A DNA stretch of 37,691 nucleotides from Clostridia bacterium (GTDB taxonomy: Bacteria; Bacillota; Clostridia; Oscillospirales; Butyricicoccaceae): NCBI GenBank assembly GCA_017396925.1, contig JAFQKM010000036.1:1-37691 (forward strand), read 5' to 3'. The position numbers were made by a program, and so were the translations under genes. Below the pieces are notes generated by a model, which ran no database searches, was not told the origin of the DNA, and saw nothing but the letters and a program-made list of their open reading frames with translations. Each line of letters starts with the position of its first letter. Position 1 is the first letter of the stretch. Shown here in pieces: positions 1 to 14,638 of the stretch.

Positions 1-1005
1 CTGGGACAAAGCCATGAACTGCTCGTCGAGTGTTGCGCCGGACTCGTCGACCAGGTTCTCGAAGTAGCGTGTGCCGGTGCACATCTCTTCGCAGACAACA
101 GCGCCGCCGCTGGTCTCTACGATGTTATGCAGCTTCCAGTTGGGAACAGCCATGGGGGTACCTGTGATCAGGATACGCTTTGTGCCGGCAGGAACAACGG
201 ATACGCCGTCGGCAATGCGCTTCTCCAGCTCATCGGCCAGACGGTTGCACATCTGGGCACAGCGGACAGGATCATCAAAGAAGGAGATCTGTGTCATCAG
301 CAGGGCGTCGCGGCCGGAAATGGGCAGGCACTCCGACTTGCGGCAATCGTATACACGCTGCAGAGCCTTGCGCTTTTCGTTGTGGATCTTGATGGATTCT
401 GCCAGATTTTCGGGTGTGATCTGGTTGCCGGTAAACTCTTCGACGATCTTGGCAAACTCGGCAATTTCTTCCTTCCACTTGAGGATATCCTTTTCACGCT
501 TCATCTGGGGAACGTCCATGATGTGCATGGGAACGTCCTGACCCAGGATCTCATAGGCCTTCTTCTTGCCATCGCAGGTGGTCTCGCCGACATACATATC
601 GGCAATACGGAAGAAGGGGCATGTCTTGCCGAGACGTGCGCCGACCGATGCCTTAACCAGGGGGCACATGCTTCTGGGCAGAACGGCTTCGCCATCGGGA
701 ACCCAGAACTGGGAGCCGCCGCACAGGCCGGTAACGATACCCTTGGCAGCAACGATGACTTCGTCGGGGACATAAACGCAGAAGGTACCGAAGACCTTGC
801 GGCCTTCCTTCTGTGCTTCGATCAGCTCAGCGGGACGGATGCCGTGAACTTCCGAGATAACGAGATCCCAGAAATCCATGCCCTGAGGACGGTTTTCCTG
901 CGACAGGAAAACGTCGCCGACAGCGGTGGGGAGTACCTGGCAGAGCAGGTCGTGATTCTCCAGATCCATGCCGAGATCTTTCCACATTTCAACGTAGTTG
1001 GACAT
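1..1005 (-). CDS. 2-hydroxyacyl-CoA dehydratase-family / double-cubane-cluster (DCCP-type) anaerobic reductase. The N-terminal 335 codons are present and the C-terminus lies beyond the left edge.
   Basis: Not in the ORF track because it runs off the window edge. My own reverse-complement translation starts at ATG 1005-1003, with AGGAGG about 9 nt upstream on the minus strand. It gives MSNYVEMWKDLGMDLENHDLLCQVLPTAVGDVFLSQENRPQGMDFWDL...GTFCVYVPDEVIVAA...CPLVKASVGARLGKTCPFFRIADMYVGETTCDGKKKAYE...GTPMAVPNWKLHNIVETSGGAVVCEEMCTG, open to position 1. I recall the Cys pattern and N-terminus as the HgdB/BcrB-like DCCP family. The + ORFs 71-541 and 127-2229 are antisense shadows. Confidence 0.7.
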   Translation of the reverse strand, partial: MSNYVEMWKDLGMDLENHDLLCQVLPTAVGDVFLSQENRPQGMDFWDLVISEVHGIRPAELIEAQKEGRKVFGTFCVYVPDEVIVAAKGIVTGLCGGSQFWVPDGEAVLPRSMCPLVKASVGARLGKTCPFFRIADMYVGETTCDGKKKAYEILGQDVPMHIMDVPQMKREKDILKWKEEIAEFAKIVEEFTGNQITPENLAESIKIHNEKRKALQRVYDCRKSECLPISGRDALLMTQISFFDDPVRCAQMCNRLADELEKRIADGVSVVPAGTKRILITGTPMAVPNWKLHNIVETSGGAVVCEEMCTGTRYFENLVDESGATLDEQFMALSQ

Positions 1006-1071: not shown

Positions 1072-2211
1072 TTATTCTTCAACGGCCAGTTCGGCAACGG
1101 CGCGGATGGCTTCGTCGATTTCTTCCTCGGTGTTGAACCAGGAGATGCTGAAGCGGATGGCGCCCTGGGCAGTAGTGCCGAGCGCCTGATGCAGGCGAGG
1201 AGCACAGTGGGCACCGGCGCGGGTGGCGATGCCGTAATCTTCCGAAAGGGCATCGGAGACCATCGACGAATCGTAATCACGGATGTTCAGTGTGACGATG
1301 GCGGTACGGGGCTGGGTAAAATCGCCATAGACGGTAACGCCTTCGATTTTGGAAACGCCTTCATAGAAGCGCATCATCAGGGCATGCTCTTTGGCCTCGA
1401 TGGCTTCGACGGTAACTTCTTCCAGATAATCCAGAGCAGCCGACAGGCCGGCAATGCCATGGCCGTTGAGTGTGCCGGCTTCCAGACAGGAGGGGAACTC
1501 GACAGGCTGGTGCTTGTTGTAGGACTGAATGCCCGAGCCGCCAACCTTGAAGGGGCGCAGGGTCAGACCGTCGCGGACACAGAGACCACCGGTGCCCTGA
1601 GGACCCATCAGACCCTTGTGACCTGTGAAGCAGAGGATATCGATATTCATAGCTTCTATATCGATATTTGCGGCGCCGGCAGTCTGAGAAGCGTCGACGA
1701 TGAGCAGCAGGTTGTGGGCCTTGGCGATCTGACCGATACGAACCAGATCCAGTTTGGTGCCCAGCAGGTTGGAAGCATGGGTGCAGACGATGGCACTGGT
1801 TTCGGGTGTGATCAGCTTTTCAAAATCAGCATAGTCAATATTGCCCTGCTTGTCGGCGGGAACGAAGGAGAGCTTGACACCCTGTTCTTCTTCCAGGCGA
1901 TAGAGGGGACGGAGGACCGAATTGTGCTCCAGATCGGTGGAGATAACATGGCTGCCGGCAGGAATGGCGCCGGTGATGGCGATGTTGAGGGACTCGGTGG
2001 AATTGCAGGTGAAGATTACATGGTCGGGAGACTTGCAGCCAAACAATTTGGCCAGTTTGCATCGGGCGTCGTAGACCGTACGGGAAGCCTGCAGCGCACT
2101 GCCGTGGGCGCCGCGGGAGGCATTGCCCATGGAAGTCATGGCAGCAACAACGGCATCGATGACCGGCTGGGGCTTGATCATGGTGGTGGCGGCATTATCG
2201 AGATAGATCAT
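1072..2211 (-). CDS. class-V aminotransferase-fold cysteine desulfurase / selenocysteine-lyase-type enzyme
   Basis: 379-aa ORF. It has the N-terminus MIYLDNAATT, the PLP-lysine context FTGHKGLMGP and the persulfide-Cys loop ATRAGAHCAP typical of NifS/SufS/CsdA-type enzymes. RBS AGAAAGGA lies upstream. It sits 66 nt upstream of the DCCP-like gene on the same strand. Confidence 0.9.
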   Translation of the reverse strand: MIYLDNAATTMIKPQPVIDAVVAAMTSMGNASRGAHGSALQASRTVYDARCKLAKLFGCKSPDHVIFTCNSTESLNIAITGAIPAGSHVISTDLEHNSVLRPLYRLEEEQGVKLSFVPADKQGNIDYADFEKLITPETSAIVCTHASNLLGTKLDLVRIGQIAKAHNLLLIVDASQTAGAANIDIEAMNIDILCFTGHKGLMGPQGTGGLCVRDGLTLRPFKVGGSGIQSYNKHQPVEFPSCLEAGTLNGHGIAGLSAALDYLEEVTVEAIEAKEHALMMRFYEGVSKIEGVTVYGDFTQPRTAIVTLNIRDYDSSMVSDALSEDYGIATRAGAHCAPRLHQALGTTAQGAIRFSISWFNTEEEIDEAIRAVAELAVEE

Positions 2212-2229: not shown

Positions 2230-2466
2230 TTACAGTTCGATAACCTGAATGGAGGCATATTTGGTGCCGGCAGCATTCATCTTTTCGGTGAACAGGGCTT
2301 CATGATCGGCAGGCGCCTTCCAGGCCAGACCGCAGCCGGCTTTAAGGGCGCCGGGAATGGGAATCAGACGGCCGGGCAGATCGTTCTGCTTGCAGAATGT
2401 TTCCATAGCAATGGCATCGGGTGTATTGGCAAAGGTAACAATCAGGGCGGGTTCTTTGGCTTTCAT
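2230..2466 (-). CDS. DUF3343 family protein (putative Se/S carrier-like)
   Basis: The track ORF is 2230-2544. I place the start at MKAKEPALIVTF (ATG 2466-2464), preceded by GAGAGGAAT. The small roughly 78-aa protein carries the characteristic KAGCGLAW Cys-Gly motif. An 18-nt gap separates it from the desulfurase gene. Confidence 0.7.
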   Translation of the reverse strand: MKAKEPALIVTFANTPDAIAMETFCKQNDLPGRLIPIPGALKAGCGLAWKAPADHEALFTEKMNAAGTKYASIQVIEL

Positions 2467-2673
2467 AATAGATTCCTCTCTGTTCTTTGGTTTTTTTATA
2501 TAAATATAGGTGTTGATACTACTTAAAGGATAGCATAGGGGCATTTTATTTTGAAATTGTTTTTTTAAATCTCTTTATGATATATTATTGGTTTTTTCGA
2601 TAAATATATCTATCCAGAAGAAAACATGCTATGATAAAATCTACAGAAATATGCATGAAAGGGTGATAGAATC

Positions 2674-3525
2674 GTGATACGAGATTTTCCCTGCACGCAT
2701 TTGCAGGATGGAGCAGAGGTTCTGTTGGAAGCTTCGTTATTGCCGGTGCCCGATATTCATCTGTATGCCGATGCTATGGGGGCATTTGCACTGGAAGTCA
2801 GGGAAAAGACGAATGCGCCCTGGTGTATGCTGCCCTTCTGCCATACCGTTGAAGCCGAGACCTTAGGCGCTAAGGTGCGCTATGGCGATCGGAAAAACGG
2901 CCCTCGTGTCGTGGATTATGCCTGCAGCACTCTGGATGATCTGCTGACCCTTCCGGACATGGATTTTACCCAAGGTCGTATCGCACAGGTGCTGGCCGCG
3001 TGCAGGGAACTGCATCGCAGGGGAGAGACCGTGATTTTGGAGATCACAGGCCCCTTTACTTTGCTGGGTGGTCTGATCGATCCGGCTTTGCTGTTCCGAT
3101 TCCTTCGAAAAGAACCCGAAAAGATGGAGCAGGTATTTGCCCATCTGCATCGTAATCTTCTGGCTTATATGCAGGCCGCCCAGGAAAGCGGCGTATCGAT
3201 CATCAGCTATGCCGATCCGACCGGCGGCGTCAACATCATCGGTCCCAAGCTGGCCGAACAGATGGTGCGCAGCTTTACCTTACCCCTTCTGCAAGGGATG
3301 GAGGACAGGCTTCATCCGGAAACTCTTGTTCATCTCTGTCCAAAGACAGCTTTTGCCCTGCTGGATACCGGCCTGGCGCAGAGCACTGCATTGCCTGTAT
3401 CAGCCCAAGCGGATTATGCCGCGGCTGTTCTGTCGGCACGGGGGAAATGCCGATTTGTCGGCCATGGCTGTATTAAAAATCACAAGTTCCGGTCGAATGG
3501 CCTCAATGGCCTGACCCTTTTATAG
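2674..3525 (+). CDS. URO-D/MtaA-family methyltransferase paralogue, shortened at both ends
   Basis: 283-aa ORF with a GTG start and AAGGGTG upstream. It aligns by eye with the next gene: CHTVEAETLGAKV vs CMTVEAEAMGAKV, ITGPFTLLGGL vs LTGPVSTASSL, ISYADPTGG vs AISDPSGTG, and HxC as VHLCPK vs VHICGQ. It lacks roughly 20 N-terminal and 35 C-terminal residues relative to that gene. Confidence 0.65.
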   Translation: MIRDFPCTHLQDGAEVLLEASLLPVPDIHLYADAMGAFALEVREKTNAPWCMLPFCHTVEAETLGAKVRYGDRKNGPRVVDYACSTLDDLLTLPDMDFTQGRIAQVLAACRELHRRGETVILEITGPFTLLGGLIDPALLFRFLRKEPEKMEQVFAHLHRNLLAYMQAAQESGVSIISYADPTGGVNIIGPKLAEQMVRSFTLPLLQGMEDRLHPETLVHLCPKTAFALLDTGLAQSTALPVSAQADYAAAVLSARGKCRFVGHGCIKNHKFRSNGLNGLTLL

Positions 3526-3536
3526 AGGAGACATTT

Positions 3537-4550
3537 ATGAATCCCAGAGAACGATTGCTCCATACCATTGAAAAAGCAGAAATCGACCGTCCGGCCTGCA
3601 TCTGCCCGGGCGGTATGATGAATATGATCACTGCCGAGCTGATGGAAAGCTGCGGCGTAAGCCTGCCTGCGGCCCATTCAGATGCACGCATGATGGCCGA
3701 TCTGGCAAAAGCCGCCTATACATCGGGCTGTTTTGAAAATGTCGGCGTGCCCTTCTGCATGACCGTCGAGGCCGAAGCCATGGGCGCCAAGGTGACCATG
3801 GGCTCCAATATTGTCGAGCCTCATGTTTCGGAATATGTCATCAATACGGTTTCCGACCATACCAAGCTGCCCTGTGTAGACCATACTGCCGGCAGAGCAG
3901 GCATTACTGTTGAAGCCATTCGCCTGCTGCGTGAAGAACTTCGTGAGGTTCCCATTGTTGGCAATCTGACCGGTCCGGTCAGCACAGCCAGCTCTTTGAT
4001 CGAGCCGACCGTCTTTTTCAAGGAACTTCGTAAGAAAAACGCCGATGCGCACGCCTTTATGGCCTTTGTGACCGATCAGCTGATCGCGTTCGGCCTGGCT
4101 CAGATCGAAGCCGGCGCCGATGTCATTGCCATTTCCGATCCCAGCGGCACGGGTGAGATCCTCGGCCCCAGATATTTTGAAGAGTTTACCGTACAGTATC
4201 TCAATCGTCTGATCGCGCCGCTCAAGGCAGCGGGTGCCAAAGTCATCGTTCATATCTGCGGACAGATGCGCCAGGTATATCCCCAGGCGAATAAAATTGA
4301 GAGCGATGTACTCAGCTTCGACTCTATTGTGCCCATTCGCGAGGCGCGGCCGGCGCTGCCCGATCGTGTGCTTATGGGCAATATAAGCACCTATACGCTG
4401 GAGTTCGGCGAGCCTGAAAAGATCGCTGTTATGACAAACTTTGCTGCCGATAACGGCTTCGATATTATCTCTCCGGCCTGCGGACTGGGTATGCGCTCGC
4501 CGCTTGGAAATATCCGCGCCATGCTGGAGACGCTGAAGGAGCGTGGATAA
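3537..4550 (+). CDS. MtaA/CmuA-type (URO-D fold) methylcobamide methyltransferase
   Basis: 337 aa with RBS GAGGAG. It has the URO-D-family core and a MtaA-type Zn site: H-x-C (VHICGQ) plus a distal Cys (ISPACGLG). Confidence 0.85.
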   Translation: MNPRERLLHTIEKAEIDRPACICPGGMMNMITAELMESCGVSLPAAHSDARMMADLAKAAYTSGCFENVGVPFCMTVEAEAMGAKVTMGSNIVEPHVSEYVINTVSDHTKLPCVDHTAGRAGITVEAIRLLREELREVPIVGNLTGPVSTASSLIEPTVFFKELRKKNADAHAFMAFVTDQLIAFGLAQIEAGADVIAISDPSGTGEILGPRYFEEFTVQYLNRLIAPLKAAGAKVIVHICGQMRQVYPQANKIESDVLSFDSIVPIREARPALPDRVLMGNISTYTLEFGEPEKIAVMTNFAADNGFDIISPACGLGMRSPLGNIRAMLETLKERG

Positions 4551-6137
4551 ATGCCGGTTCTGCACATTCTGGAAAACGGCCGACGAATCCATTGTGAAAC
4601 GGGGGAAAACCTGCTTCAGGTGCTCCATAAGGCCGAAGTCTTTATTGAAAATCCCTGTAATGGCACCGGTGTCTGCGGCAAATGCCGTGTACGCATTCTG
4701 AGTGGTGAAGCTTCCCCGATGGAAGCCACCGAACGCAGGCTGCTGAAAGAAGAGGAAATTGATAGGAGTATCCGTCTGGCCTGCCTTACCCGTGTTGTCG
4801 GCGATCTCGATCTCGAACTGCCCCGTCAGGAGCGCGGCAATCAGATGCTGACCAAGGGATATCTGCCCGACTTTACACGGGACTCGTTTGATGGCGGCTG
4901 TGGTGTTGCCATCGATATCGGCACAACAACGGTGGTTGTTTCGCTGATCGACCTGCAGACCGGGGAAGAGCTTGCTTCGGCTTCCCAGATCAATGCTCAG
5001 AAGCGATTTGGTCTGGACGTCCTTACCCGTATCACCTATGAATACGAGCATCCAGAGGCGGCTGCATCCGAACTGCAGAAGGCCATTGTCGAGCAGTTGG
5101 ATAACCTGATTCTGCAGGCTTGCCGGGATGCCGGACGTGCAGAACAGGAGATCCGTACAGTTACAGTAGCTGCCAATTGCACCATGACCCATATGCTGCT
5201 TGGTGTGGACGCCCGCCCGCTGGGACGCGCACCGTACACACCGGTTTTTAAGGCGGCACAGACCTTGAAATGTGAAGAAATCGGGCTGAAATCCTGTAAA
5301 GGTGCAAAGCTTTACTGCCTGCCGCAGGTCTCTGCTTATATCGGTTCGGATATCGTTGCAGGCGCACATGTCTGCAATATGCAGAAGGAAAAGGGGAATG
5401 TCCTCTTTATTGATATCGGCACCAACGGTGAGATCGTTCTGGCCAGTGGCGGCAGGCTGCTCTGCTGCTCCTGTGCAGCAGGCCCGGCCCTGGAGGGCAC
5501 CAATATCAGCTGCGGTATGCGTGCGGCCGAAGGCGCTGTCGAGGAGATTCGGATCCTGCCGGAACAGACCGAGCTGAAGGTGATCGGCGATACCCATGCC
5601 GTCGGCCTTTGCGGCAGCGGCATTCTGGCGGCTGTTCGCGAACTGCTGGATAAAGGCTTTGTCAAACCTTCGGGTGTATTTATTAAAAAGAGCGATTCCG
5701 GCCCGGGAGCCGACGCGCGGCTATTCCTGCGGGGAACCAAGCGCGCATTCCGGCTGGAGGGCGGTCTGATCATCACGCAGGATGATGTCCGGCAGGTTCA
5801 GCTGGCCAAAGGGGCCATTCTTTCCGGCTTTATGGCACTTCTGCGCAAGGCCGGAATCGGCATGGAGGATCTGGACAAGGTTCTGATCGCCGGTCAGTTC
5901 GGCGCACATCTGCCGGTCGATTCCCTTGTCGGCACCGGTATTCTGCCACCCGAAGTTGCAGATAAGCTGGTCTATGTGGGCAACTCGTCCAAAACCGGCG
6001 CCTATATGGCAATGATGTCGGATACCGAACGCAGATCCATGGAGCAGTTGGCCGAAAACATGGAATATATGGAGCTGGCCGAAACACAGGATTATGAAAG
6101 TCTGTTTGCGGGATGTATGATCTTCCCGAAAAAATAA
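4551..6137 (+). CDS. corrinoid reductive activase (RACE-type; 2Fe-2S ferredoxin + ASKHA ATPase)
   Basis: 528 aa. The N-terminus has plant-type ferredoxin cysteines (NPCNGTGVCGKCRV...RLACL). ASKHA phosphate motifs GVAIDIGTTTVV and LFIDIGTNGEIV are present. The ATG directly abuts the preceding TAA (4548-4553). Confidence 0.85.
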   Translation: MPVLHILENGRRIHCETGENLLQVLHKAEVFIENPCNGTGVCGKCRVRILSGEASPMEATERRLLKEEEIDRSIRLACLTRVVGDLDLELPRQERGNQMLTKGYLPDFTRDSFDGGCGVAIDIGTTTVVVSLIDLQTGEELASASQINAQKRFGLDVLTRITYEYEHPEAAASELQKAIVEQLDNLILQACRDAGRAEQEIRTVTVAANCTMTHMLLGVDARPLGRAPYTPVFKAAQTLKCEEIGLKSCKGAKLYCLPQVSAYIGSDIVAGAHVCNMQKEKGNVLFIDIGTNGEIVLASGGRLLCCSCAAGPALEGTNISCGMRAAEGAVEEIRILPEQTELKVIGDTHAVGLCGSGILAAVRELLDKGFVKPSGVFIKKSDSGPGADARLFLRGTKRAFRLEGGLIITQDDVRQVQLAKGAILSGFMALLRKAGIGMEDLDKVLIAGQFGAHLPVDSLVGTGILPPEVADKLVYVGNSSKTGAYMAMMSDTERRSMEQLAENMEYMELAETQDYESLFAGCMIFPKK

Positions 6138-6164
6138 AAATAGGAGCGCACGGAGGATATAGAG

Positions 6165-6812
6165 ATGGAAAAAGAAAAACTGTTTGCGGCCATTGCCGAA
6201 AACATTGTCGAAATGGAAGATGAAACCGTTGAGGAACTGTGCCAGCAGGCATTGGACGAAGGCATCGATGCTGCCGAGACCATCAACGAAGGTCTGATCC
6301 CCGGCATGGATAAGGTCGGCGATCTGTATGAGAGCGGAGAATACTTCCTTCCCGAAGTCCTGACCGCATCCTATGCCATGAATGTGGGCATCGATGTTCT
6401 CAAGCCTCATATCAAGCAGGAAGAGAACGGCGAAAAGATCGGCGTTGTCATTGGCGTTGTCGAAGGCGATACCCACGATATCGGCAAAAATCTGGTTCGC
6501 ATCATGAGCGAATCGGGTGGCTTTGAAGTCTGGGATCTGGGCCGCGATGTTCCGCTGGATGATTTTATTACCACAGCCGAAGAAAAGAATGCCGATTTTA
6601 TCTGCATGTCCACACTGATGACCACCACCATGGGCGGCATGAAAACCGTTATTGAAAAGCTTAAGGAAAAGGGCATTCGCGACAAGTACAAGGTCATGAT
6701 CGGCGGCGGCCCCATTTCGCAGAAGTTTGCCGATGAGATCGGTGCGGATGCCTACACAACCGATGCAGCTTCTGCCGTTAAGAAGATGAAGGAACTGAAG
6801 GGAGCAAAGTAA
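6165..6812 (+). CDS. B12-binding corrinoid protein (MtaC/MtbC/MttC-like)
   Basis: 215 aa with a helical cap plus Rossmann domain. The lower-ligand motif D-x-H-x-x-G appears as GDTHDIGKN (D102/H104/G107). RBS GGAGGA. Confidence 0.9.
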   Translation: MEKEKLFAAIAENIVEMEDETVEELCQQALDEGIDAAETINEGLIPGMDKVGDLYESGEYFLPEVLTASYAMNVGIDVLKPHIKQEENGEKIGVVIGVVEGDTHDIGKNLVRIMSESGGFEVWDLGRDVPLDDFITTAEEKNADFICMSTLMTTTMGGMKTVIEKLKEKGIRDKYKVMIGGGPISQKFADEIGADAYTTDAASAVKKMKELKGAK

Positions 6813-6815
6813 GCT

Positions 6816-7913
6816 ATGGATCTGATCGCAAGCTACCTCCACGGTCTGGAGGTCCCCAAGGATGAACTGACCAGCCTGGAACGTACCACACTGTACGGTC
6901 AGGGCAAGCCGGTCGACCGCATTCCCGCCAGCCTGGACGGCGGCGAAACCATGTCCTATCTGGTAGGCGCCGGCATGGACGAGTATTATTTCTCGTCGGA
7001 GATCATGGCACAGGTCGAAGAATATATTCATCGCAAGTTTGGCTCCGACGGTGCCGGTATTTCCACATCACTCCGCGGCATGGCCGAAGCCATGGGTTCG
7101 GAGATCAAATATTCCAAAAACAATGTTGCACAGCTGGCCAAGCCCGCACTCCATCTCAGCGAGGTTGACAATGCCAAGCTGGTCGATGTCGATAAGGACG
7201 GCCGTCTGCCCATCATTCTTGATGCTGTCAGAAAGGTCAAGGATCGTCTGGGCAAAGAAGTGTCGGTCAGCGCATCGGTCACCGGCCCTCTGTCGATCGC
7301 TGCCATGGTTCTGGGCACCGAACAGCTGCTGATCGGCATGATCAAGAAGCCCGAAAAGGTCCATCAGCTGATGGAGGTCATCGTCGAGAACAACAACCGT
7401 CTGATCAAGCGCCTGGTCGAAATGGGCGTCAGCATCGGTTTCCCCGATCCCGTCAGTTCGACTGCTCTGATCAGCGTCGAGCAATACCGCAAGTTCTCGC
7501 TGCCTTATTTCAAGAAGAATGTCGATTATGTCAAGAGTCTCGGCGGCGGCTGCGGCCTGCATATCTGCGGCACCAGCCGTAAGCTGTGGGAAGATCTGCG
7601 CGACACCGGCATCGGCGCTTTCAGCCTCGACAATGTCGAAAGCCTGGAAGAGGCCAAGATCGTTCTCGGCGGCACCATGGGTATCCAGGGTAATGTTCCG
7701 CCTGTTGATGTCATGAAGCTGGGCACATCGCACGATGTTCTGCGTGCAGCCCGTGAATGCATTCGCCAGGGCTGGGATTCGCCCAACGGCTTTACCCTGA
7801 CATCCGGCTGCCAGATGCCGGCTAATACACCCGAGGAAAATATGCAGGCCCTGATGGATGCCGCCCGTATCTTTGGCCGCTGGCCCATCGACCCCGAAAA
7901 GCTGATCGGTTAG
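6816..7913 (+). CDS. URO-D-family methyltransferase (third paralogue; candidate substrate:corrinoid MT)
   Basis: 365 aa starting 3 nt after the corrinoid protein stop. It has the URO-D-like core (VTGPLSIAAMVLG, GFPDPVSS) and Zn-site-like LHICGTS plus TSGCQMP. It has a longer, divergent N-terminus. Confidence 0.8.
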   Translation: MDLIASYLHGLEVPKDELTSLERTTLYGQGKPVDRIPASLDGGETMSYLVGAGMDEYYFSSEIMAQVEEYIHRKFGSDGAGISTSLRGMAEAMGSEIKYSKNNVAQLAKPALHLSEVDNAKLVDVDKDGRLPIILDAVRKVKDRLGKEVSVSASVTGPLSIAAMVLGTEQLLIGMIKKPEKVHQLMEVIVENNNRLIKRLVEMGVSIGFPDPVSSTALISVEQYRKFSLPYFKKNVDYVKSLGGGCGLHICGTSRKLWEDLRDTGIGAFSLDNVESLEEAKIVLGGTMGIQGNVPPVDVMKLGTSHDVLRAARECIRQGWDSPNGFTLTSGCQMPANTPEENMQALMDAARIFGRWPIDPEKLIG

Positions 7914-7945
7914 CCCATTTTGCACAGAAAAAAGTATAGACAAAA

Positions 7946-7978
7946 TAAAAAACGGACCGACAAACGGTCCGTTTTTTA
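7946..7978. terminator. bidirectional intrinsic terminator between convergent genes
   Basis: The stem AACGGACCG (7951-7959) pairs with CGGTCCGTT (7965-7973) around the loop ACAAA. An A-run lies 5' and a T-run 3'. Confidence 0.85.
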
Positions 7979-7994
7979 TATATTACCGGTTCTG

Positions 7995-8717
7995 TCAGGA
8001 TTTTGTCCATTCGCCTTTCCAGTTGTTGGTATCAAAGTAATAAACTTCGGCAACACCCTTGCTGTCGAGGATGGCGGCAGCGGCATCTACGGCTTTGATA
8101 TCGTCGGCAATCAGCACAACAGGCATTGCTGCTTCAAAAGAAGCTTCGCCAAGGGCAGACAGGGGAAGGCTGACGGTGCCTTCGATATGGCCGTCGGCAT
8201 AGGCTTCGGCCGAGCGGATATCGATGCGCAGGCAGCTTCCGGCAAGCGCCTGCTGGAACTGCAGCGGACGCAGCTTGCGGGGAAGAGCACGGGGGATATC
8301 CAGCTCCATATCTTTGACTTCGTCGAGGATCTCGGCGATCAGCGTAATGGTGGGCATGCAGCTTTCCTTTTCGGTCAGATACTTGGGCATGAGATGGGCA
8401 CAGGCTGTACTGCCCATGCGTTCGGCAACGCGCTCCTGAAAGATCTTGGCCTTTGCCATGAGCAGGGGACTCTGATGGCCGGTGATATGCACATAATAGT
8501 GGCTGAGGGCAGCTACACCGCCACTGACGGCGCCGCATACTCCCTGCACACCCATGCCGCCGCCAAAGCCGCCCATCAGGCGGAAAGCTTCCTCGGGAAG
8601 ATGCAGCTCCCAGGCTTCATCGGCCGCACGCAGGGTGGTCTCTGCGCAGTTGTAGCCGAGGCCGTGAAAATAATGATGCAGACATTCGGTAACTTTCTTT
8701 GCCATTGGAAAAACCAT
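7995..8717 (-). CDS. C_GCAxxG_C_C family redox-type protein fused to a rhodanese-homology domain lacking the catalytic Cys
   Basis: 240 aa; the start may be the second Met, at 8705. The N-half has YNCAETT, GVCGAVSGG and a distal ...STACAHL...ESCMP. The C-half is rhodanese-like (IDIRSAEAYADGHIEGTVSLPL...PVVLIADDIKAVDAAAAIL...NNWKGEW). The usual CxxGxR loop position reads IADDIKA. Confidence 0.75.
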   Translation of the reverse strand: MVFPMAKKVTECLHHYFHGLGYNCAETTLRAADEAWELHLPEEAFRLMGGFGGGMGVQGVCGAVSGGVAALSHYYVHITGHQSPLLMAKAKIFQERVAERMGSTACAHLMPKYLTEKESCMPTITLIAEILDEVKDMELDIPRALPRKLRPLQFQQALAGSCLRIDIRSAEAYADGHIEGTVSLPLSALGEASFEAAMPVVLIADDIKAVDAAAAILDSKGVAEVYYFDTNNWKGEWTKS

Positions 8718-8909
8718 CCTTTATTATTGGTTGAGTTGATTGTATCATAGATTTCGGTTGCTGTATCCTGCAAATCAAGTATGTTTGGAACTTTCAATAA
8801 AGAAGCAGGCATCCATTTGTATTTCGAATAAACCTGTGCTTTCCTTGACTTTTACATGGAATACAGCTACGTTAAATACATATAGTGCCTGAAGAAAGGA
8901 CAGAGATCC

Positions 8910-11051
8910 ATGGAAAAGTATACAACAGAAGAATTGCTGCAGGCCAGAATCCCCGGTGAGGAGACCGGAATCACGGTCAAACGCACCATCTGCGGTTTCT
9001 GCGGCGAAAACTGCCTTGTGGATGCCTATATGAAAGACGGCAAAATCATCAAGGTTGAAGGCTGCGACAGCCTGCCTGTGGCCAACAGCGGCAAGCTGTG
9101 CGTCAAGGGTGCTGCACTGAAGCAGACCATTTACCATCCCGAGCGCCTGCTCTATCCCATGAAGCGCGTGGGTGCGCGCGGCGAAGGAAGATTCGAACGC
9201 ATCACATGGGAAGAAGCCATGTCGACCATTGCGCAGAAAATGCAGGAGACCAAGGAATCGCACGGCGCCAAGGCGACGCTGGTCTATGCCGGTCATCCCA
9301 AGTGGTTCCGCCATCAGCTGACCGAGCTGTGCAATGCCTACGGTACCCCCAATTTCGGCACCGAGTCGAGTTCCTGTGCCTATGCACGCATGCTGGCCAA
9401 TGAAACGGTATTCGGCACAACCGGCCGCGGCGCCATGCCCGATATGGCCAACACCAACACATTGCTGATCTGGGGCGTCAATCAGATGTATTCCCGCTCG
9501 GTTACCGGCTCCAAGAGCCATCTGAAGCTGGAAGAGAAGGGGGTCAATATCATTGTTGTCGACTCCCGCCATACACCGACCACCGATCATGCCACCCTCC
9601 ATCTGCAGCCCATTCCCGGCACCGACGGTGCCTTGGCTCTGGGCATGGCACAGGTCATCATTTCCGAAAATCGCCATGATATGGCCTATATCGAAAAGAA
9701 CTGCACCGGCTTTGAAGCCTATAAAGACTATGTCTCGGGCTTCACTCCCGAAAAGGTCGAAGCTATTACCGGTGTTCCGGCAGACCTTGTGATTCGGGCG
9801 GCTCGTCTGCTGACCGAGAACGGTCCCTTCGGCCTGCAGATGTCGGCATCGCCGATGGTGCATCACATCAACGGCGTACAGAATGTCCGCGCCATCAATG
9901 CGTTGGTATTGCTCACCGGCAGCTTTGGCGTCAAGGGCGGTACGGCCGGTCCCGGTCCCGGCCGCGGCGGCTTTAAAAACGGATTCCTGATGAATCCGCT
10001 CCACCGCGTCGATGCCGACCAGGATCTGAGCCATGCCGAGTTCCCGGCATGGGCACAGCTCAATTTCTATGAAACCCAGGTCACCCGCATTGCCGATTAT
10101 ATGGAGGGCAAGGGCGATTATCCGATCCATACCCTCATCGCCTTCGGTATGAACCACCACATGTGGGCTCAGCCTGAACACGTGGAAGAAGCCTTCAAGG
10201 GCCTGGATTTCTTCGTTAATATCGATATGTACAAGACCGACACCTGTGATTATGCCGATATCATCCTGCCTGCCGCCACGGCCTTAGAGCGTGAACAGCT
10301 GCTGATGATGGGCAAAGGCCAGATCCTCGACCTGCAGCCCATCATTGAACCAATGGGCGAGGTTCGCAATGATATGGAAATCATTCTTGAGCTGGCACAG
10401 CGCCTTGACCTTGAGATCGGCGATCCCGTGCTGAAAAATTACGACGATTATCTGCGTATGTCGCTGATGGGTACCGGCCTGACTCTTGAGGAGCTGCGTG
10501 CCGCACCCGACGGCCTGCCCAAGCCCGGTAAGCTGGCGATGCGGACAACCGAGCAGATTCTGTCGAATGTCCGTACACCCAGCGGCAAACTGGAGTTTGT
10601 TTCGTCGGTACTGGAAGGCTGTGATATGCCCCATCACGACAGCCTGCCCGTCTACCGTGATTTCCGCGAAACATTGCCGATGGATGAATATCCCCTGATC
10701 CTCTGTACAGGCTGCCGCAAGCCGCAGCTTTTCCATAAACGTACCTATCGAATGCCCTGGCTCAATAATCTGGAAGAATCGCCGGTCATCGAGCTGCATC
10801 CCGAAACGGCAAAAAAGCTGGGTATTGCAGATGGTGAGATGGTTCGCGTGGTTACCCCGATCGGCGCACTGGAGATGCGTCTGCTCCACGATACTTCCGG
10901 TCTTCCCGGTGTTGTCCATGTCTATCATGGCGCCAGGGACAAAGATATCAATTCTCTGCTGGATGAGAAATACTACGATCCCATTTCCGGCTTCCCCGGC
11001 TACAAATCCTATTGCTGCCGTCTGGAAAAGCTGGAACAGAAGGAGGCATAA
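8910..11051 (+). CDS. molybdopterin (Mo/W-bis-PGD) oxidoreductase catalytic subunit, DMSO-reductase superfamily, cytoplasmic
   Basis: 713 aa. The N-terminal FS0 motif is CGFCGENC...GKLCVKG. The candidate metal-ligand region is NFGTESSSCAYARM. The C-terminal PGD-binding barrel reads YPLILCTGCRKPQLFH...ELHPETAKKLGIADGEMVRVVTPIGALEM. There is no twin-arginine leader (MEKYTTEELLQARIPGEETG...). Confidence 0.9.
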   Translation: MEKYTTEELLQARIPGEETGITVKRTICGFCGENCLVDAYMKDGKIIKVEGCDSLPVANSGKLCVKGAALKQTIYHPERLLYPMKRVGARGEGRFERITWEEAMSTIAQKMQETKESHGAKATLVYAGHPKWFRHQLTELCNAYGTPNFGTESSSCAYARMLANETVFGTTGRGAMPDMANTNTLLIWGVNQMYSRSVTGSKSHLKLEEKGVNIIVVDSRHTPTTDHATLHLQPIPGTDGALALGMAQVIISENRHDMAYIEKNCTGFEAYKDYVSGFTPEKVEAITGVPADLVIRAARLLTENGPFGLQMSASPMVHHINGVQNVRAINALVLLTGSFGVKGGTAGPGPGRGGFKNGFLMNPLHRVDADQDLSHAEFPAWAQLNFYETQVTRIADYMEGKGDYPIHTLIAFGMNHHMWAQPEHVEEAFKGLDFFVNIDMYKTDTCDYADIILPAATALEREQLLMMGKGQILDLQPIIEPMGEVRNDMEIILELAQRLDLEIGDPVLKNYDDYLRMSLMGTGLTLEELRAAPDGLPKPGKLAMRTTEQILSNVRTPSGKLEFVSSVLEGCDMPHHDSLPVYRDFRETLPMDEYPLILCTGCRKPQLFHKRTYRMPWLNNLEESPVIELHPETAKKLGIADGEMVRVVTPIGALEMRLLHDTSGLPGVVHVYHGARDKDINSLLDEKYYDPISGFPGYKSYCCRLEKLEQKEA

Positions 11052-11054
11052 GCC

Positions 11055-11483
11055 ATGGCAAAGATCATTTGTGAAGAAAAGAACTGTTCGGGCTGCCTGG
11101 CCTGTGTCGTGGCCTGCATCGATCAGCATTATGACGAAACAGCAGGGGAGGCGCTTTCCTGCCGCATCCACGAGAAGATCACAACAGAAACCGGCCTTGT
11201 GCGTTACACGACTCGTACCTGCCATCACTGCGCCGATGCTCCCTGTGTCAAGGTTTATCCCACAGAAGCCCTCTATATCAACGAGATGGGGCTGGTCATC
11301 CCTGTGCGCGACAAGTGCATCGGATGCCGTGCCTGCGAAGCGGCCTGTCCCTTCGACATTCCCCGTTTCGACGGCGAGGGCAAGCTGGTCAAATGTGACG
11401 GCTGTGCTGCCCGTCAGGCGCATGGCCTGCTTCCGGCCTGTGTCCGCACCTGCAATACAGGCGCACTGAAGCTGGGAGAATAA
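11055..11483 (+). CDS. 4Fe-4S poly-ferredoxin electron-transfer subunit (DmsB/PsrB-like, compact)
   Basis: 142 aa with four Cys groups: CSGCLACVVAC, CHHCADAPC, CIGCRACEAACP and CDGC...CVRTC. A 3-nt gap follows the catalytic subunit. Confidence 0.9.
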   Translation: MAKIICEEKNCSGCLACVVACIDQHYDETAGEALSCRIHEKITTETGLVRYTTRTCHHCADAPCVKVYPTEALYINEMGLVIPVRDKCIGCRACEAACPFDIPRFDGEGKLVKCDGCAARQAHGLLPACVRTCNTGALKLGE

Positions 11484-11508: not shown

Positions 11509-11542
11509 AGATCCTCCGGCGCCTGTCGGAGGATCTTTTTTT
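11509..11542 (+). terminator. intrinsic terminator after the Mo-enzyme operon
   Basis: The stem AGATCCTCCG (11509-11518) pairs with CGGAGGATCT (11527-11536) around the loop GCGCCTGT. A T7 run follows. Confidence 0.88.
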
Positions 11543-11631: not shown

Positions 11632-13050
11632 ATGACAAGGAAACAACAGGATCCTGCCATGCTGGAAGAGCTGGCAAATAAGATTCTGCAGTTGGATATT
11701 CATACTTTGATGGTCGATCTGCGGTATCTGCGTGTGGCGCTGCAGCAGCTGAAACCGGCATCTGATCCCGAGGGCAGCCTGGCCACCGATGGCGCATATC
11801 TTTATTATGCACCCCAGCATATTTTGCGCCGCTATAAAAAAGATCCTGCGGCGTCTGCGCGGGACTATCTCCATGTTGTGCTGCACTGCATCTTCCGGCA
11901 TATGTACCTTTCCGAAAAAGTCCGACCTCAGTACTGGGACCTGGCCTGTGATATTGCCGTTGAACATATAATCAGTGGGCTGGATCTGCGTTCTCTGGCA
12001 GCAGAGCGGCACAAAGACCAGCGCAGTGTTCTTGAAGAACTGAAGCAGCAGATCGGAGCGCTGACTGCGGAAAAGATTTATCGGTGGATGCTGGAACAGA
12101 AATTGCCGCAGGAAGAGCTTGAGAAGATGCGCAGGCTCTTTTATGCCGATGACCATGCACTCTGGCATCTCAATGCCGAGGAAGACGATGCGGACGATGG
12201 CGATCGGGAAGAAAAAGAGCCCGGGGATCGGCAGGAGTCCGGTGCGGAAGGTGCCCCCAAAACCGAAGCCGAACCGCAGATCGATGCACTTGATGCCGAG
12301 CGCCGTGAAGCCCGTGCCATGATGGAAACCATCTGGGCAGACATGGCACGGCAGGTGGAAATGGAACTTGCATCCTTCAATAAAGCAAGCGATGGCCGTG
12401 CCGATGCCCTGACGCAGAATCTGCTGGCCGTCAACCGTGAGAAATATGATTATACGGCTTTTCTGCGCAAGTTTGCGGTGCGCAGTGAAGTCATGCAGAT
12501 CGATCCGGATACCTTTGATACTGTTTTTTACACCTACGGCCTGCAGCTGTTTGGCAATATTCCGCTGATCGAACCGCTGGAATACAAGGAGATTCGTCGC
12601 ATCCGTACATTTGTCATCGCTATCGATACTTCAGGCTCAACGACAGGTGCGCTGGTGCAGCGGTTTATACAGAAGACCTATAATATTCTGCAATCGACCG
12701 AAAGCTTTTTCTCGCAGATCGAGCTTTATATCCTGCAATGCGATGATGAGGTGCGGGAGGCTGTACGCATCACTTCTCTGGAGGAGTTTGATGCATACAT
12801 GAAAACCATGCAGATCCGCGGCCATGGCGGCACAGATTTTCGCCCGGTCTTTTCCTATGTTGACGATCTGCGCCGCAGAGGAGAACTGCGCGATCTTCGC
12901 GGCCTGATCTATTTTACCGATGGCTACGGCACCTTTCCACAGGCAAAGCCGGATTATGATACAGCCTTTGTTTTTGTCGACGATACCTATCAGCGGCCCG
13001 AAGTGCCGCCCTGGGCCATGCGTCTGATACTGCGTCCGGAAGAGATCTGA
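11632..13050 (+). CDS. DUF2201-type protein: metallopeptidase-like N-domain + acidic linker + vWA domain
   Basis: 472 aa. The N-domain has HVVLHCIFRH...WDLACDIAVE, where this family normally has an HExxH-type motif. An acidic linker NAEEDDADDGDREEKEPGDRQESGAEG follows. The C-terminal vWA has MIDAS FVIAIDTSGST (D332/S334/S336) and ...IYFTDGYG. Confidence 0.8.
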   Translation: MTRKQQDPAMLEELANKILQLDIHTLMVDLRYLRVALQQLKPASDPEGSLATDGAYLYYAPQHILRRYKKDPAASARDYLHVVLHCIFRHMYLSEKVRPQYWDLACDIAVEHIISGLDLRSLAAERHKDQRSVLEELKQQIGALTAEKIYRWMLEQKLPQEELEKMRRLFYADDHALWHLNAEEDDADDGDREEKEPGDRQESGAEGAPKTEAEPQIDALDAERREARAMMETIWADMARQVEMELASFNKASDGRADALTQNLLAVNREKYDYTAFLRKFAVRSEVMQIDPDTFDTVFYTYGLQLFGNIPLIEPLEYKEIRRIRTFVIAIDTSGSTTGALVQRFIQKTYNILQSTESFFSQIELYILQCDDEVREAVRITSLEEFDAYMKTMQIRGHGGTDFRPVFSYVDDLRRRGELRDLRGLIYFTDGYGTFPQAKPDYDTAFVFVDDTYQRPEVPPWAMRLILRPEEI

Positions 13051-13081
13051 TATATACCTACGCGGATAAAGGGGATCCATT

Positions 13082-14614
13082 ATGAATATCAAAGAAGCAA
13101 AAGAACAGATCAAATATGCCATGACGGCCTATTTTACCAAGGATGATTTTGGAAAGTATGTCATTCCGCCCGAAACCCAGCGACCGGTTTTCCTGATGGG
13201 CCCTCCGGGCATTGGCAAAACCGCCATTATGGAGCAGATCGCTTCCGAACTGGGGGTCGGACTGGTTTCCTACTCGATGACCCATCATACCCGACAGAGT
13301 GCTTTGGGTCTGCCTTATATTGAAAAGAAGAATTACGGCGGCAGGGAATATACCGTTTCGGAATATACTATGAGTGAGATCATCGCGTCGGTCTATGATC
13401 TGATGGAAGAGAGCGGCCTGCAGGAGGGCATTCTTTTCCTCGACGAGATCAATTGTGTATCCGAAACACTGGCGCCTGCTATGCTGCAGTTTCTGCAGTA
13501 CAAGACCTTTGGCCGTCATCGCGTGCCTGCGGGATGGATCGTTGTTACGGCAGGCAATCCGCCCGAATACAATAGTTCGGTTCGCAATTTTGATATTGTC
13601 ACCTGGGATCGACTCAAGCGCATCGATGTCGAGCCCGACTATGGCGTATGGAAGGAATATGCGCATATCCGCGGGGTGCATCCGGCGGTAACTACCTATC
13701 TGGATATTCGCAGAGATGATTTTTATCATGTGGAAACAACGGTCGACGGCCGCAGCTTTGTTACGGCCCGTGGATGGACCGATCTCTCCGACATGATCAA
13801 GCTTTACGAGCGCCATGGCATGCCTGTGGATGAAAAACTGATCGGCCAGTATCTGCAGGATCCCCGTGTTGCCGGCGAGTTTGGCGTCTATTACAGTCTC
13901 TTCAGCAAGTATAAATCCGACTATCAGATCGACCAGATCCTGGCCGGTAAAGCATCGGCCGAGGTCAGAGAACGCGCTAAGGCAGCTCGCTTCGATGAGC
14001 GCCTGGCGCTGCTTGGCCTTCTGCTCGACGGTGTGACCGACCGTCTGCGGGGTATCTGCCGCATGGAACAGAGTCTCAACAAGCTGATGGGTGTGGTTAA
14101 GAATATCCGTATCGATCTGGCCCGTCCCGGTGCGCAGGCTGCACAGGCCATTCAGAAACAGATCGACGGTATTGAGAAACGAATTGAAGCCGGTCAGTTG
14201 GCTTCCTCTCTGTCGGCCGATAGTGTTTATGCCTGCCGTATGGCCATCGATCTTCTCGAGCGGCAGCGAGCACAGCTGGCTGTCGAGGGCGGCGGAGCTG
14301 CCGAAGCCATCAAGCTGCTCAAATCGGCATTTGATGCCCAGGTTGCGGCCCTCAAAGCCGATGCGATATTGGCCGGAGACCAGCTGAGCCATCTGTTTGC
14401 CTATTGCGCCGATGTCTTTGGCGACGGCCAGGAGATGGTTGTATTGGTCAACGAGCTGACCATCAGCTACTATGGGATGCACTTCATCAGCCGATATGGC
14501 TGTGCACCTTATTTTGAATACAGCAAAAAGCTGCTCTTCCGCGAACAGCAGCGTGAGATCCTGGGTGCTCTGGACCGCCTGGAGATCGATTGGGATCAGG
14601 ATCCCGGGATTTAG
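13082..14614 (+). CDS. MoxR-like AAA+ ATPase (AAA_5 type) with a long helical C-terminal extension
   Basis: 510 aa with RBS AAAGGGGA. Walker A is GPPGIGKT (aa 40-47), Walker B is ILFLDE (aa 117-122), and VVTAGNPPEY is sensor-1-like. Residues from about 290 to 510 are Ala/Leu/Gln/Arg-rich and look helical. Confidence 0.85.
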   Translation: MNIKEAKEQIKYAMTAYFTKDDFGKYVIPPETQRPVFLMGPPGIGKTAIMEQIASELGVGLVSYSMTHHTRQSALGLPYIEKKNYGGREYTVSEYTMSEIIASVYDLMEESGLQEGILFLDEINCVSETLAPAMLQFLQYKTFGRHRVPAGWIVVTAGNPPEYNSSVRNFDIVTWDRLKRIDVEPDYGVWKEYAHIRGVHPAVTTYLDIRRDDFYHVETTVDGRSFVTARGWTDLSDMIKLYERHGMPVDEKLIGQYLQDPRVAGEFGVYYSLFSKYKSDYQIDQILAGKASAEVRERAKAARFDERLALLGLLLDGVTDRLRGICRMEQSLNKLMGVVKNIRIDLARPGAQAAQAIQKQIDGIEKRIEAGQLASSLSADSVYACRMAIDLLERQRAQLAVEGGGAAEAIKLLKSAFDAQVAALKADAILAGDQLSHLFAYCADVFGDGQEMVVLVNELTISYYGMHFISRYGCAPYFEYSKKLLFREQQREILGALDRLEIDWDQDPGI

Positions 14615-14638
14615 CCCCAACAGGAGGGATAAAACGGC

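Follow-up and report, generated by a model that had tools for sequence, protein, structure and literature searches.

Does the close spacing of a corrinoid methyltransferase operon, a gene encoding a C_GCAxxG_C_C domain fused to a rhodanese-like domain and a molybdoenzyme gene pair in a clostridial genome reflect a common metabolic role? The locus was analysed in a window, that is the whole stretch of 37,691 nucleotides covering positions 1 to 37,691 of contig JAFQKM010000036.1 (GCA_017396925.1; genome G000). Three transcription units were observed, namely the methyltransferase operon at 2674-7913 (+), the C_GCAxxG_C_C-rhodanese gene at 7995-8717 (-) and the pair MoAB at 8910-11483 (+). MoAB denotes MoA, the molybdenum (Mo) bis-pyranopterin guanine dinucleotide (bisPGD) subunit of 713 amino acids, together with FeS, a Fer4_11 protein of 142 amino acids. 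The first-pass annotation had described these units as lying within 9 kb with terminator or promoter spacers between them, and this was borne out, the open reading frames and their families being found where it had placed them. It had offered two readings, an aryl methyl ether O-demethylation followed by catechol dehydroxylation and a chalcogen route in which a reductase would deliver a methyl sulfide or selenide to the methyltransferases. The present analysis revealed that MoAB lies repeatedly beside methyltransferase clusters of the same kind, known as type 1 mlp clusters, in Clostridia. On balance, the region appears to be an accessory island for selenium (Se) and sulfur (S) compounds built of separable modules, namely the mlp cluster, the S/Se trafficking genes with the rhodanese fusion, and MoAB.

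Genomes are denoted by G numbers and loci, taken from genomes, metagenomes and assemblies, by L numbers. The genus set consisted of nine genomes, G000 (88% complete) and eight genus-mates including G005 (98% complete), while the class-level sample consisted of 399 evenly drawn Clostridia species.

The methyltransferase operon and type 1 mlp clusters

Type 1 mlp gene clusters were described by Kountz and Balskus in 2023 (bioRxiv; PMC10418091). They are defined by two to three URO-D "Mlp" paralogues of distinct clades near the coenzyme M methyltransferases of methanogens, at least Mlp2 and Mlp3 being encoded and often Mlp1 too, along with a corrinoid protein and a bacterial-type Ram/RACE activase and without a folate methyltransferase (PMC10418091). 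In that work a His-Cys-Cys zinc site was read as the signature of S/Se-methyltransferases, O-demethylases being without it, and the frequent neighbours of the clusters were selenocysteine lyase, dicubane protein and MarHDK-like genes (Fig. 5 of PMC10418091). The clusters were strongly tied to selenium-using genomes and implicated in methyl-selenide and methyl-sulfur metabolism; methylcobalamin:selenide activity was reported for one Mlp2 and the genetics of Methanococcus voltae (Sdm dimethylselenide system) was cited (PMC10418091).

The operon of the window encodes, in order on the + strand, a short URO-D of 283 amino acids with a GTG start (2674..3525; Pfam URO-D; Mlp1-like clade), a URO-D of 337 amino acids (3537..4550; PRK06252 at 394 bits, above cut-off; Mlp3-like clade), a RACo/RACE-type ATP-dependent corrinoid reductive activase with an N-terminal 2Fe-2S domain (4551..6137; Pfam Fer2, Raco_middle and RACo_C_ter), a corrinoid (B12-binding) methyl-carrier protein (6165..6812; B12-binding_2 and B12-binding; TIGR02370 at 230 bits, above cut-off) and a URO-D of 365 amino acids (6816..7913; Pfam URO-D; Mlp2-like clade). 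A tree of 54 URO-D proteins was built from 13 mlp clusters sampled at random from the even Clostridia sample and from linked loci. The three window proteins were split over three separate clades with SH-aLRT (Shimodaira-Hasegawa-like approximate likelihood-ratio test) values of 99, 92 and 98. In this tree the long clades held one member per cluster and the short clade was often missing, matching Mlp1 in PMC10418091; the names Mlp1, Mlp2 and Mlp3 are inferred for the window paralogues from their relative closeness to MtaA and not from the named reference Mlps. When compared with MtaA (PDB 4ay7), the 337-residue protein gave an E value of 7e-43 with His239-x-Cys241 and Cys315 aligned to the zinc ligands, and the 365-residue protein gave 7.5e-30 with His249-x-Cys251 and Cys332 aligned to the same ligands. 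The His-Cys-Cys pattern is kept throughout both long clades.

The 365-residue Mlp2-like protein is the best-conserved product of the operon, with 85-90% identity in G439, G007 and L093. The short URO-D carries HLC at 220-222 (H220/C222) and C266, and sits in a 14-member clade of proteins of 219-301 amino acids, plus one RACo fusion of 870 amino acids (SH-aLRT 99). Membership of this conserved short clade (260-300 amino acids) ruled out that the first gene of the operon is a pseudogene. The short protein is just 55-57% identical among the genus-mates, against about 90% for the product of 6816-7913 in the same operon, and part of the short clade is without the His-x-Cys motif; the pattern points to a relaxed or shifting constraint on this paralogue.

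Upstream of the operon, three minus-strand genes make up the S/Se trafficking cluster. The first encodes a double-cubane-cluster-type reductase of the HGD-D family (1..1005, running past the left edge of the window; Pfam HGD-D, E 1e-80), which reached 351 bits against the cut-off of 350 for NCBIfam NF040772 double_cubane despite the truncation. It is followed by a class-V pyridoxal-phosphate cysteine desulfurase of selenocysteine-lyase-like (SclA-like) type (1072..2211; Pfam Aminotran_5, E 1e-90; TIGR01977 at 431 bits, above cut-off; SclA model at 340 bits, below cut-off) and by an Se/S-carrier-like small protein (DUF3343; 2230..2544; Pfam Se_S_carrier, E 5e-17, residues 34-99), the real start of which is probably near 2466, since the homologues have 78 amino acids. 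This set of neighbours agrees with Fig. 5 of PMC10418091. Two SelD matches were found in G000 (G000:C64:2002-2922 and G000:C41:4-906), each with one in-frame TGA of the selenocysteine type, and SelD with an in-frame TGA is present in all nine genus genomes. A Wood-Ljungdahl or folate methyl acceptor was ruled out, as no Pterin_bind match was obtained in the G000 genome at its 88% completeness. Judged by sequence, the operon fits the already-published type 1 mlp cluster and not a lignan demethylase. The agreement in clades, His-Cys-Cys site, neighbours and SelD argues against O-demethylation to a catechol, the first of the two earlier readings, which was not upheld: the URO-Ds are MtaA-like with the zinc pattern kept, and aromatic-specific genes were absent from the MoAB neighbourhoods examined.

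Separable modules and their recurrent co-localisation

The whole block of trafficking cluster, mlp cluster, C_GCAxxG-rhodanese gene and MoAB is kept in G007 and in two metagenome lineages (MoA 78-79% identical), and G003 carries it split over two short contigs. Within the genus set, the mlp cluster and MoAB occur together in G000, G003 and G007; an orthologue of either was not found in the other six genomes, G005 having just a MoAB paralogue of 41% identity. In G439 the mlp cluster (Mlp2-like 85%, corrinoid protein 82%) lies between the genes for DNA polymerase IV and M18 aminopeptidase, and MoAB (59%) lies on another contig, at least about 8 kb off even when the two contigs are taken to join end to end. 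G011 has the Mlp3 type, and MoAB was not found there. The three units are not obligate together, each being found without the others, and MoAB is a separately mobile module. The check by synteny advised in the first-pass annotation gave a mixed outcome, with the block retained in G007 and two metagenome lineages and the MoAB-mlp adjacency seen in three lineages, but with the units standing apart elsewhere.

The position of the rhodanese-fusion gene (7995..8717, -; Pfam, TIGR01909) was clarified by G008, where the C_GCAxxG-rhodanese gene (63% identical) lies about 650 bp from the Se_S_carrier and desulfurase genes on the same strand, with no mlp cluster in between and no MoAB beyond. Because G008 keeps them together without the mlp cluster or MoAB, the fusion gene is best assigned from its gene context to the minus-strand trafficking cluster and to neither operon. 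The same arrangement ruled out that the fusion protein is devoted to MoAB or to the mlp cluster. The rhodanese loop is without the active-site Cys in the window and in G007 (VLIADDIK and VLIASDIK), and carries a Cys in G008 and in the L093 lineage (ILCGDDIR and IICSGDIN). A catalytic residue has been gained or lost inside one genus (window 7995-8717; L180:8287-9000; L093:6194-6901).

In three Clostridia lineages that are independent of one another, MoAB was found at most 3.5 kb from an mlp cluster, and two of these have the genes in a single co-directional array. Dorea-like gut contigs (L094:2020-14956; MoA 62%) contain one 13-kb co-directional array with gaps of at most about 90 bp, the order being corrinoid protein, Mlp1, Mlp3, RACE, a divergent Mlp2-like protein, GNAT, GH123, MoA, FeS and two NifDK-like proteins. 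MoAB is here placed between the mlp cluster and the NifDK-like pair, which is nitrogenase-component-1-like and weakly nitrogenase-like (47 bits). The complete genome G358 (4.1 Mb, single Mlp3-type match) contains one 11-kb co-directional array (L189:1-11152, G358:C1) that leads from MoA (36%) and FeS through an ABC (ATP-binding cassette) ATPase, a permease and an SsuA-like binding protein to the mlp cluster. In G381 (L196), too, an SsuA-like gene related to that of G358 lies next to the mlp cluster.

Among the 399 Clostridia species, the Mlp3 type was found in 13, MoAB in two and both in one, where they are adjacent, against about 0.07 expected if they were independent. The lineage counts were pooled from genomes, metagenomes and assemblies, the class-level sample alone (MoAB in 2/399) being too small for statistics. 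Nine mlp-linked leaves are scattered on the MoA tree of 179 homologues and at least six state changes are needed to explain them; the mlp-linked lineages are few and relatives cannot be counted as independent cases. With one mlp cluster per genome of 1.7-4.1 Mb, the chance of falling in a 20-kb interval is about 0.5-1% per genome, and of the lineages in which MoAB and mlp are both known to occur, four or five in number, three show adjacency. Recurrence in independent lineages exceeds what chance would give, and we read the MoAB-mlp link as real but facultative. Looser cases, in which a MoA of 29-42% identity lies near URO-D, corrinoid or RACo genes (L149, L032, L161 and a Parasporobacterium locus), weigh less, as some of these organisms may hold many corrinoid systems. 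A soluble molybdenum/tungsten (Mo/W) reductase repeatedly joined to mlp clusters is, as far as the searched text shows, undescribed, the mlp cluster itself being already known.

The class of MoAB and its candidate substrates

MoA (8910..11051, +; Pfam Molybdop_Fe4S4, Molybdopterin and Molydop_binding) is a predicted cytoplasmic Mo/W-bis-pyranopterin catalytic subunit with an N-terminal 4Fe-4S domain, and FeS (11055..11483, +; Pfam Fer4_11) is a compact ferredoxin-type electron-transfer subunit. The N-terminal cluster motif of MoA is CxxCxxxC...C, no twin-arginine (TAT) motif was present in its N-terminus and no membrane-anchor gene was found. All 28 homologues compared share Cys156, the predicted metal ligand, which lines up with the metal-binding Cys of acetylene hydratase and with that of PsrA. 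A Gly stands at the position of Asp13 of acetylene hydratase (CGFCGENC against CQSCDINC), and Ala, not His, follows directly after the ligand Cys. The best solved relative of MoA is acetylene hydratase (E 4e-62), with PsrA being nearly equal, and all NCBIfam matches were well under their cut-offs. The FeS protein contains 17 Cys in four CxxCxxCxxxC-like groups and its gene follows MoA in nearly all relatives.

Several known identities of MoA were examined. Acetylene hydratase was ruled out by the replacement of Asp13 with Gly, and formate dehydrogenase by Ala in place of His after the ligand Cys and by a score of 320 bits against a cut-off of 666. For Psr/Phs, neither the TAT motif nor an anchor gene was found and PhsA gave 270 bits against 694. 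DmsA, DorA/TorA and BisC did not agree with the Cys at the ligand position, and their models gave 160-250 bits against cut-offs of 778-1600.

About 1,800 representatives of clusters at 50% identity match MoA at E<=1e-30, and the 20 nearest representatives that were looked up all bear the generic name "molybdopterin-dependent oxidoreductase", none of them being from Eggerthellaceae. In many relatives of 35-42% identity, including the paralogue of the genus-mate G005 and the homologue of Parasporobacterium paucivorans, a gene for a Pyr_redox_2 flavoprotein precedes MoA, which fits a soluble NAD(P)H-linked reductase. We infer from these features that MoAB would be a soluble ferredoxin-coupled Mo/W-bisPGD reductase of a clade near acetylene hydratase and Psr/Phs.

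The other neighbourhoods of MoAB gave hints to the substrate. In the two lineages nearest to the window MoA (64-67%), MoA or MoA with FeS forms the end of an operon that also encodes a PatB C-S lyase and an Opp-type importer (L190:3173-12563 with MoA and FeS; L191:1069-10042 with MoA), PatB scoring 409-411 bits against a cut-off of 340. In L190, MobB/MoaC and MoaB/MoaE genes lie 9 kb upstream of this operon. An Opp-type importer is found directly upstream of MoA in L013 as well, MoAB is followed by two double-cubane reductases in L186, and among the neighbours in further contexts are a YeiH-family transporter and a DASS anion symporter. A MoA paralogue of G007 (30%; L012:1692-4105, G007:C296) is followed directly by a double-cubane-type gene, 79% identical to the one that comes after MoAB in L186. 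In Parasporobacterium paucivorans (L205:8727-21835), a PadH-like flavoprotein, MoA (42%), FeS and a DASS symporter form a group 2-9 kb from a URO-D, a corrinoid protein, a split MtmB frame and a RACo-URO-D fusion. Aromatic-specific genes were not found in any MoAB neighbourhood examined. Taken as gene content, the neighbours of MoAB point to organosulfur or selenium compounds rather than aromatics. The second of the earlier readings, the chalcogen route, was partly supported by the type 1 mlp match and by the recurrence of MoAB beside mlp clusters, PatB, double-cubane and NifDK-like genes, but an obligate link between the units was not seen.

In the proposed mechanism, the zinc-dependent URO-D methyltransferases would move methyl groups from methyl-selenides or methyl-thiols to the corrinoid protein and then onward, with the RACE activase holding the corrinoid in its reduced state. 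The C_GCAxxG_C_C-rhodanese would work with the double-cubane reductase, the selenocysteine-lyase-like desulfurase and the Se/S-carrier group. MoAB would move independently and settle repeatedly by mlp clusters and C-S lyase/importer operons, and it would reduce an oxidised or chalcogen-chalcogen-bonded organosulfur or selenium compound in the cytoplasm. The leading candidate substrate is a methyl sulfoxide or selenoxide of the S-methylcysteine or methionine type, and its reduced form would next be accessible to C-S cleavage or corrinoid demethylation. In this scheme the gene identities, the transcription units, the separability of the modules and their recurrent co-localisation were observed, and the substrate class and the passage of metabolites from module to module are proposed.

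More tentatively, MoAB may found a class of Mo/W reductases that are soluble, linked to ferredoxin or NAD(P)H and active on oxidised organo-chalcogens. With mlp, PatB, double-cubane or nitrogenase-like partners, such enzymes would provide a modular anaerobic route by which gut Clostridia regain sulfide and selenide from methylated S/Se compounds of the diet. Substrates in such a class may include S-methylcysteine or methionine sulfoxides, methyl selenoxides or seleninates, and diselenides. Type 1 mlp clusters occur widely among anaerobes, gut and toxigenic clostridia being examples, and a reductase repeatedly joining them would, if the proposal is true, point to oxidised methyl-S/Se compounds as their feedstock. 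It would also provide a concrete entry step, open to testing, for the anaerobic recovery of selenium and sulfur in the gut and a first function for a populous soluble Mo/W clade between acetylene hydratase, Psr/Phs and the catechol dehydroxylases.

Several points weigh against this proposal. The lineages are few, and the tendency of accessory genes to gather in islands makes adjacency by chance more frequent. No Mlp3-type methyltransferase was found in 13 MoAB genomes (G005, G417, G438, G440, G442 and G443-G450), and no MoA was found within 10 kb in 12 of the 13 sampled mlp clusters. In the window, mlp and MoAB are separate transcription units parted by an opposite-strand gene and a terminator, and some MoAB contexts are uninformative, for example sigF/spoVA and octopine-DH/PrpD. 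Molybdenum is unmentioned in the text and supplements of PMC10418091. The MoA clade is without a characterised member. Classical sulfoxide reductases such as DmsA, DorA and BisC have a Ser ligand, and the Cys ligand of MoA places it with the Psr/Phs/acetylene hydratase group, unlike these enzymes. Genes for the molybdenum cofactor (Moco) were incomplete, since MoaC (PF01967) and the MoaA C-terminal domain (PF06463) were unmatched in all nine genus genomes and MoeA_N was unmatched in G000. Mo enzymes are nevertheless encoded in four of the nine (G000, G003, G005 and G007), and the missing genes could mean cofactor scavenging, an unbinned Moco island or inactive genes. A frame of about 950-1045 amino acids matching MoA at about 32% identity is also carried by G000, G003 and G007.

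Among the other explanations, we hold it doubtful that the units were juxtaposed by chance in a flexible island, with MoAB acting on a substrate unrelated to methyl-S/Se and its position marking insertion hot spots. Chance would agree with the finding of each unit alone, with the heterogeneous neighbourhoods of MoAB, with the separate transcription of mlp and MoAB in the window and with the discordant divergence in G439, where the Mlp2-like protein is 85% and MoA 59% identical. It would also agree with the flanking desulfurase and HGD-D proteins being 91-97% identical among genus-mates as against 55-90% for the island genes. These observations have to be set against a spacing of at most 3.5 kb in three independent Clostridia lineages, two of them with tight co-directional arrays, where about 0.5-1% is expected per genome (20-kb interval) and three of the four or five both-holding lineages are adjacent; more distant MoAs too adjoin URO-D, corrinoid or RACo genes (L149, L032, L161, Parasporobacterium). 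If the link were only positional, the locus would be an instance of a published cluster, correctly annotated, beside an orphan molybdoenzyme.

Quite improbable is a maturation link, by which the desulfurase, the Se/S carrier and the C_GCAxxG-rhodanese would supply S or Se for the MoA ligand or for cluster assembly, by analogy with IscS and FdhD serving formate dehydrogenases (sulfido/selenido ligand), the mlp cluster being incidental. MoA is a Cys-ligand type I enzyme, and Cys-ligand type I Mo enzymes can carry a sulfido ligand. The C_GCAxxG-rhodanese gene divergently adjoins MoA in all four genus-level loci, and one Lachnospiraceae lineage has an unfused C_GCAxxG_C_C gene at a distance of 2-4 kb from MoAB; yet G008 keeps the trafficking set without MoAB (a search at E<=1e-50 gave no other MoA-like gene in this genome), most MoAB loci are without any of these trafficking genes and the rhodanese Cys is missing in the window genome. 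Least probable of all, and very unlikely in our judgement, is that the operon encodes an O-demethylase of aryl methyl ethers and MoAB is a two-subunit catechol dehydroxylase of the Gordonibacter type acting on the resulting catechol. Parasporobacterium paucivorans, which has the MoA homologue of 42% identity near corrinoid methyltransferase genes, reportedly demethylates methoxy-aromatics. Acetylene hydratase, the best solved relative of MoA, is also the closest characterised relative of the catechol dehydroxylases, and those of Gordonibacter likewise consist of a catalytic subunit and a small ferredoxin (PMC7028382). However, PsrA scores almost equally to acetylene hydratase against MoA, the 20 nearest cluster representatives looked up contain no Eggerthellaceae, and the neighbours are C-S lyase, double-cubane, NifDK-like and S/Se-carrier genes, not aromatic-pathway genes. 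The window URO-Ds keep the His-Cys-Cys site and group with MtaA-type S-methyltransferases; O-demethylases have carboxylate or missing zinc ligands (PMC10418091), whereas both full-length window URO-Ds keep both Cys, and ClMlp3, the one Mlp compared, is 17% identical to the O-demethylases OdmB and VdmB (PMC10418091).

Flanking sequences and comparison with known systems

The convergent Mlp2-like and C_GCAxxG genes are separated by 81 bp, which contain a bidirectional intrinsic terminator at 7945..7979, a 15-pair hairpin flanked by an A-run and a T-run. A divergent control region of 192 bp (8718..8909) lies between the rhodanese-fusion gene and MoA, with a single sigma-70-like match at 8699-8727 (+), a consensus match only. 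The MoAB unit ends at an intrinsic terminator (11509..11536, +), a 12-pair hairpin followed by a T-run. On the 3' side of MoAB, window 11632-17446 holds a cassette of three genes, DUF2201/vWA-like, MoxR-type AAA and BspA-LRR. The L093 lineage is without this cassette at the MoAB-flanking position and has lplA-like and ypeB-like genes instead. Beyond the cassette lie core housekeeping genes, namely IMPDH, uvrBA, pyrH-frr-uppS-cdsA-dxr-rseP-ispG and polC.

When compared with known systems, the operon shares with the type 1 mlp cluster the three URO-D clades, a monomeric corrinoid protein, RACE, the lack of a folate methyltransferase and the selenium traits. It differs in a gene order unlike that of the C. 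ljungdahlii example and in the Mo/W-bisPGD pair at the edge of the window cluster, which is absent from the text and supplements of PMC10418091. Methanosarcina MtsA/MtsB and MtaA/MtbA (PDB 4ay7) are alike in fold and zinc ligands and are the best solved and NCBIfam matches of the 337-residue URO-D, but the window host is a bacterium in which no coenzyme M pathway is expected, and the scores lie under the equivalog cut-offs.

Among the molybdoenzymes, MoA resembles acetylene hydratase (2e7z) and PsrA/PhsA (2vpw) in the N-terminal 4Fe-4S domain, the aligned Cys ligand and a similar size. It is predicted to be cytoplasmic like acetylene hydratase, but has Gly in place of the catalytic Asp13; with Psr/Phs it shares the Cys ligand and a four-cluster-like subunit, but has no TAT signal or membrane anchor. 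Catechol dehydroxylases are known in two forms, one with TAT signal, FeS subunit and membrane anchor (Eggerthella) and one with catalytic subunit and small ferredoxin (Gordonibacter), and their clade was delimited by an identity to Dadh or Cldh above 30% with E<1e-34 and by a greater closeness to these and to acetylene hydratase than to other characterised bis-MGD enzymes (PMC7028382). The Gordonibacter-type Cldh and Dodh (PMC7028382), compared here by architecture, are alike in the two-gene arrangement, which is not clade-specific; the window host is a Clostridium-class bacterium, and its kind of MoAB is found among S/Se-related and not aromatic genes.

A functional Mar methylthio-alkane reductase was shown for group IV-C only (PMC13753814), and a link to MoAB or to corrinoid proteins was not found in the methylthio-alkane reductase papers searched. 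From the DMSO and methionine-sulfoxide reductases (DmsABC, DorA, BisC) that feed MarBHDK, MoA differs in its Cys instead of Ser ligand and is remote from these families; the proposed logic is nevertheless alike, with the reduction of a methyl sulfoxide being followed by anaerobic release of the sulfur.

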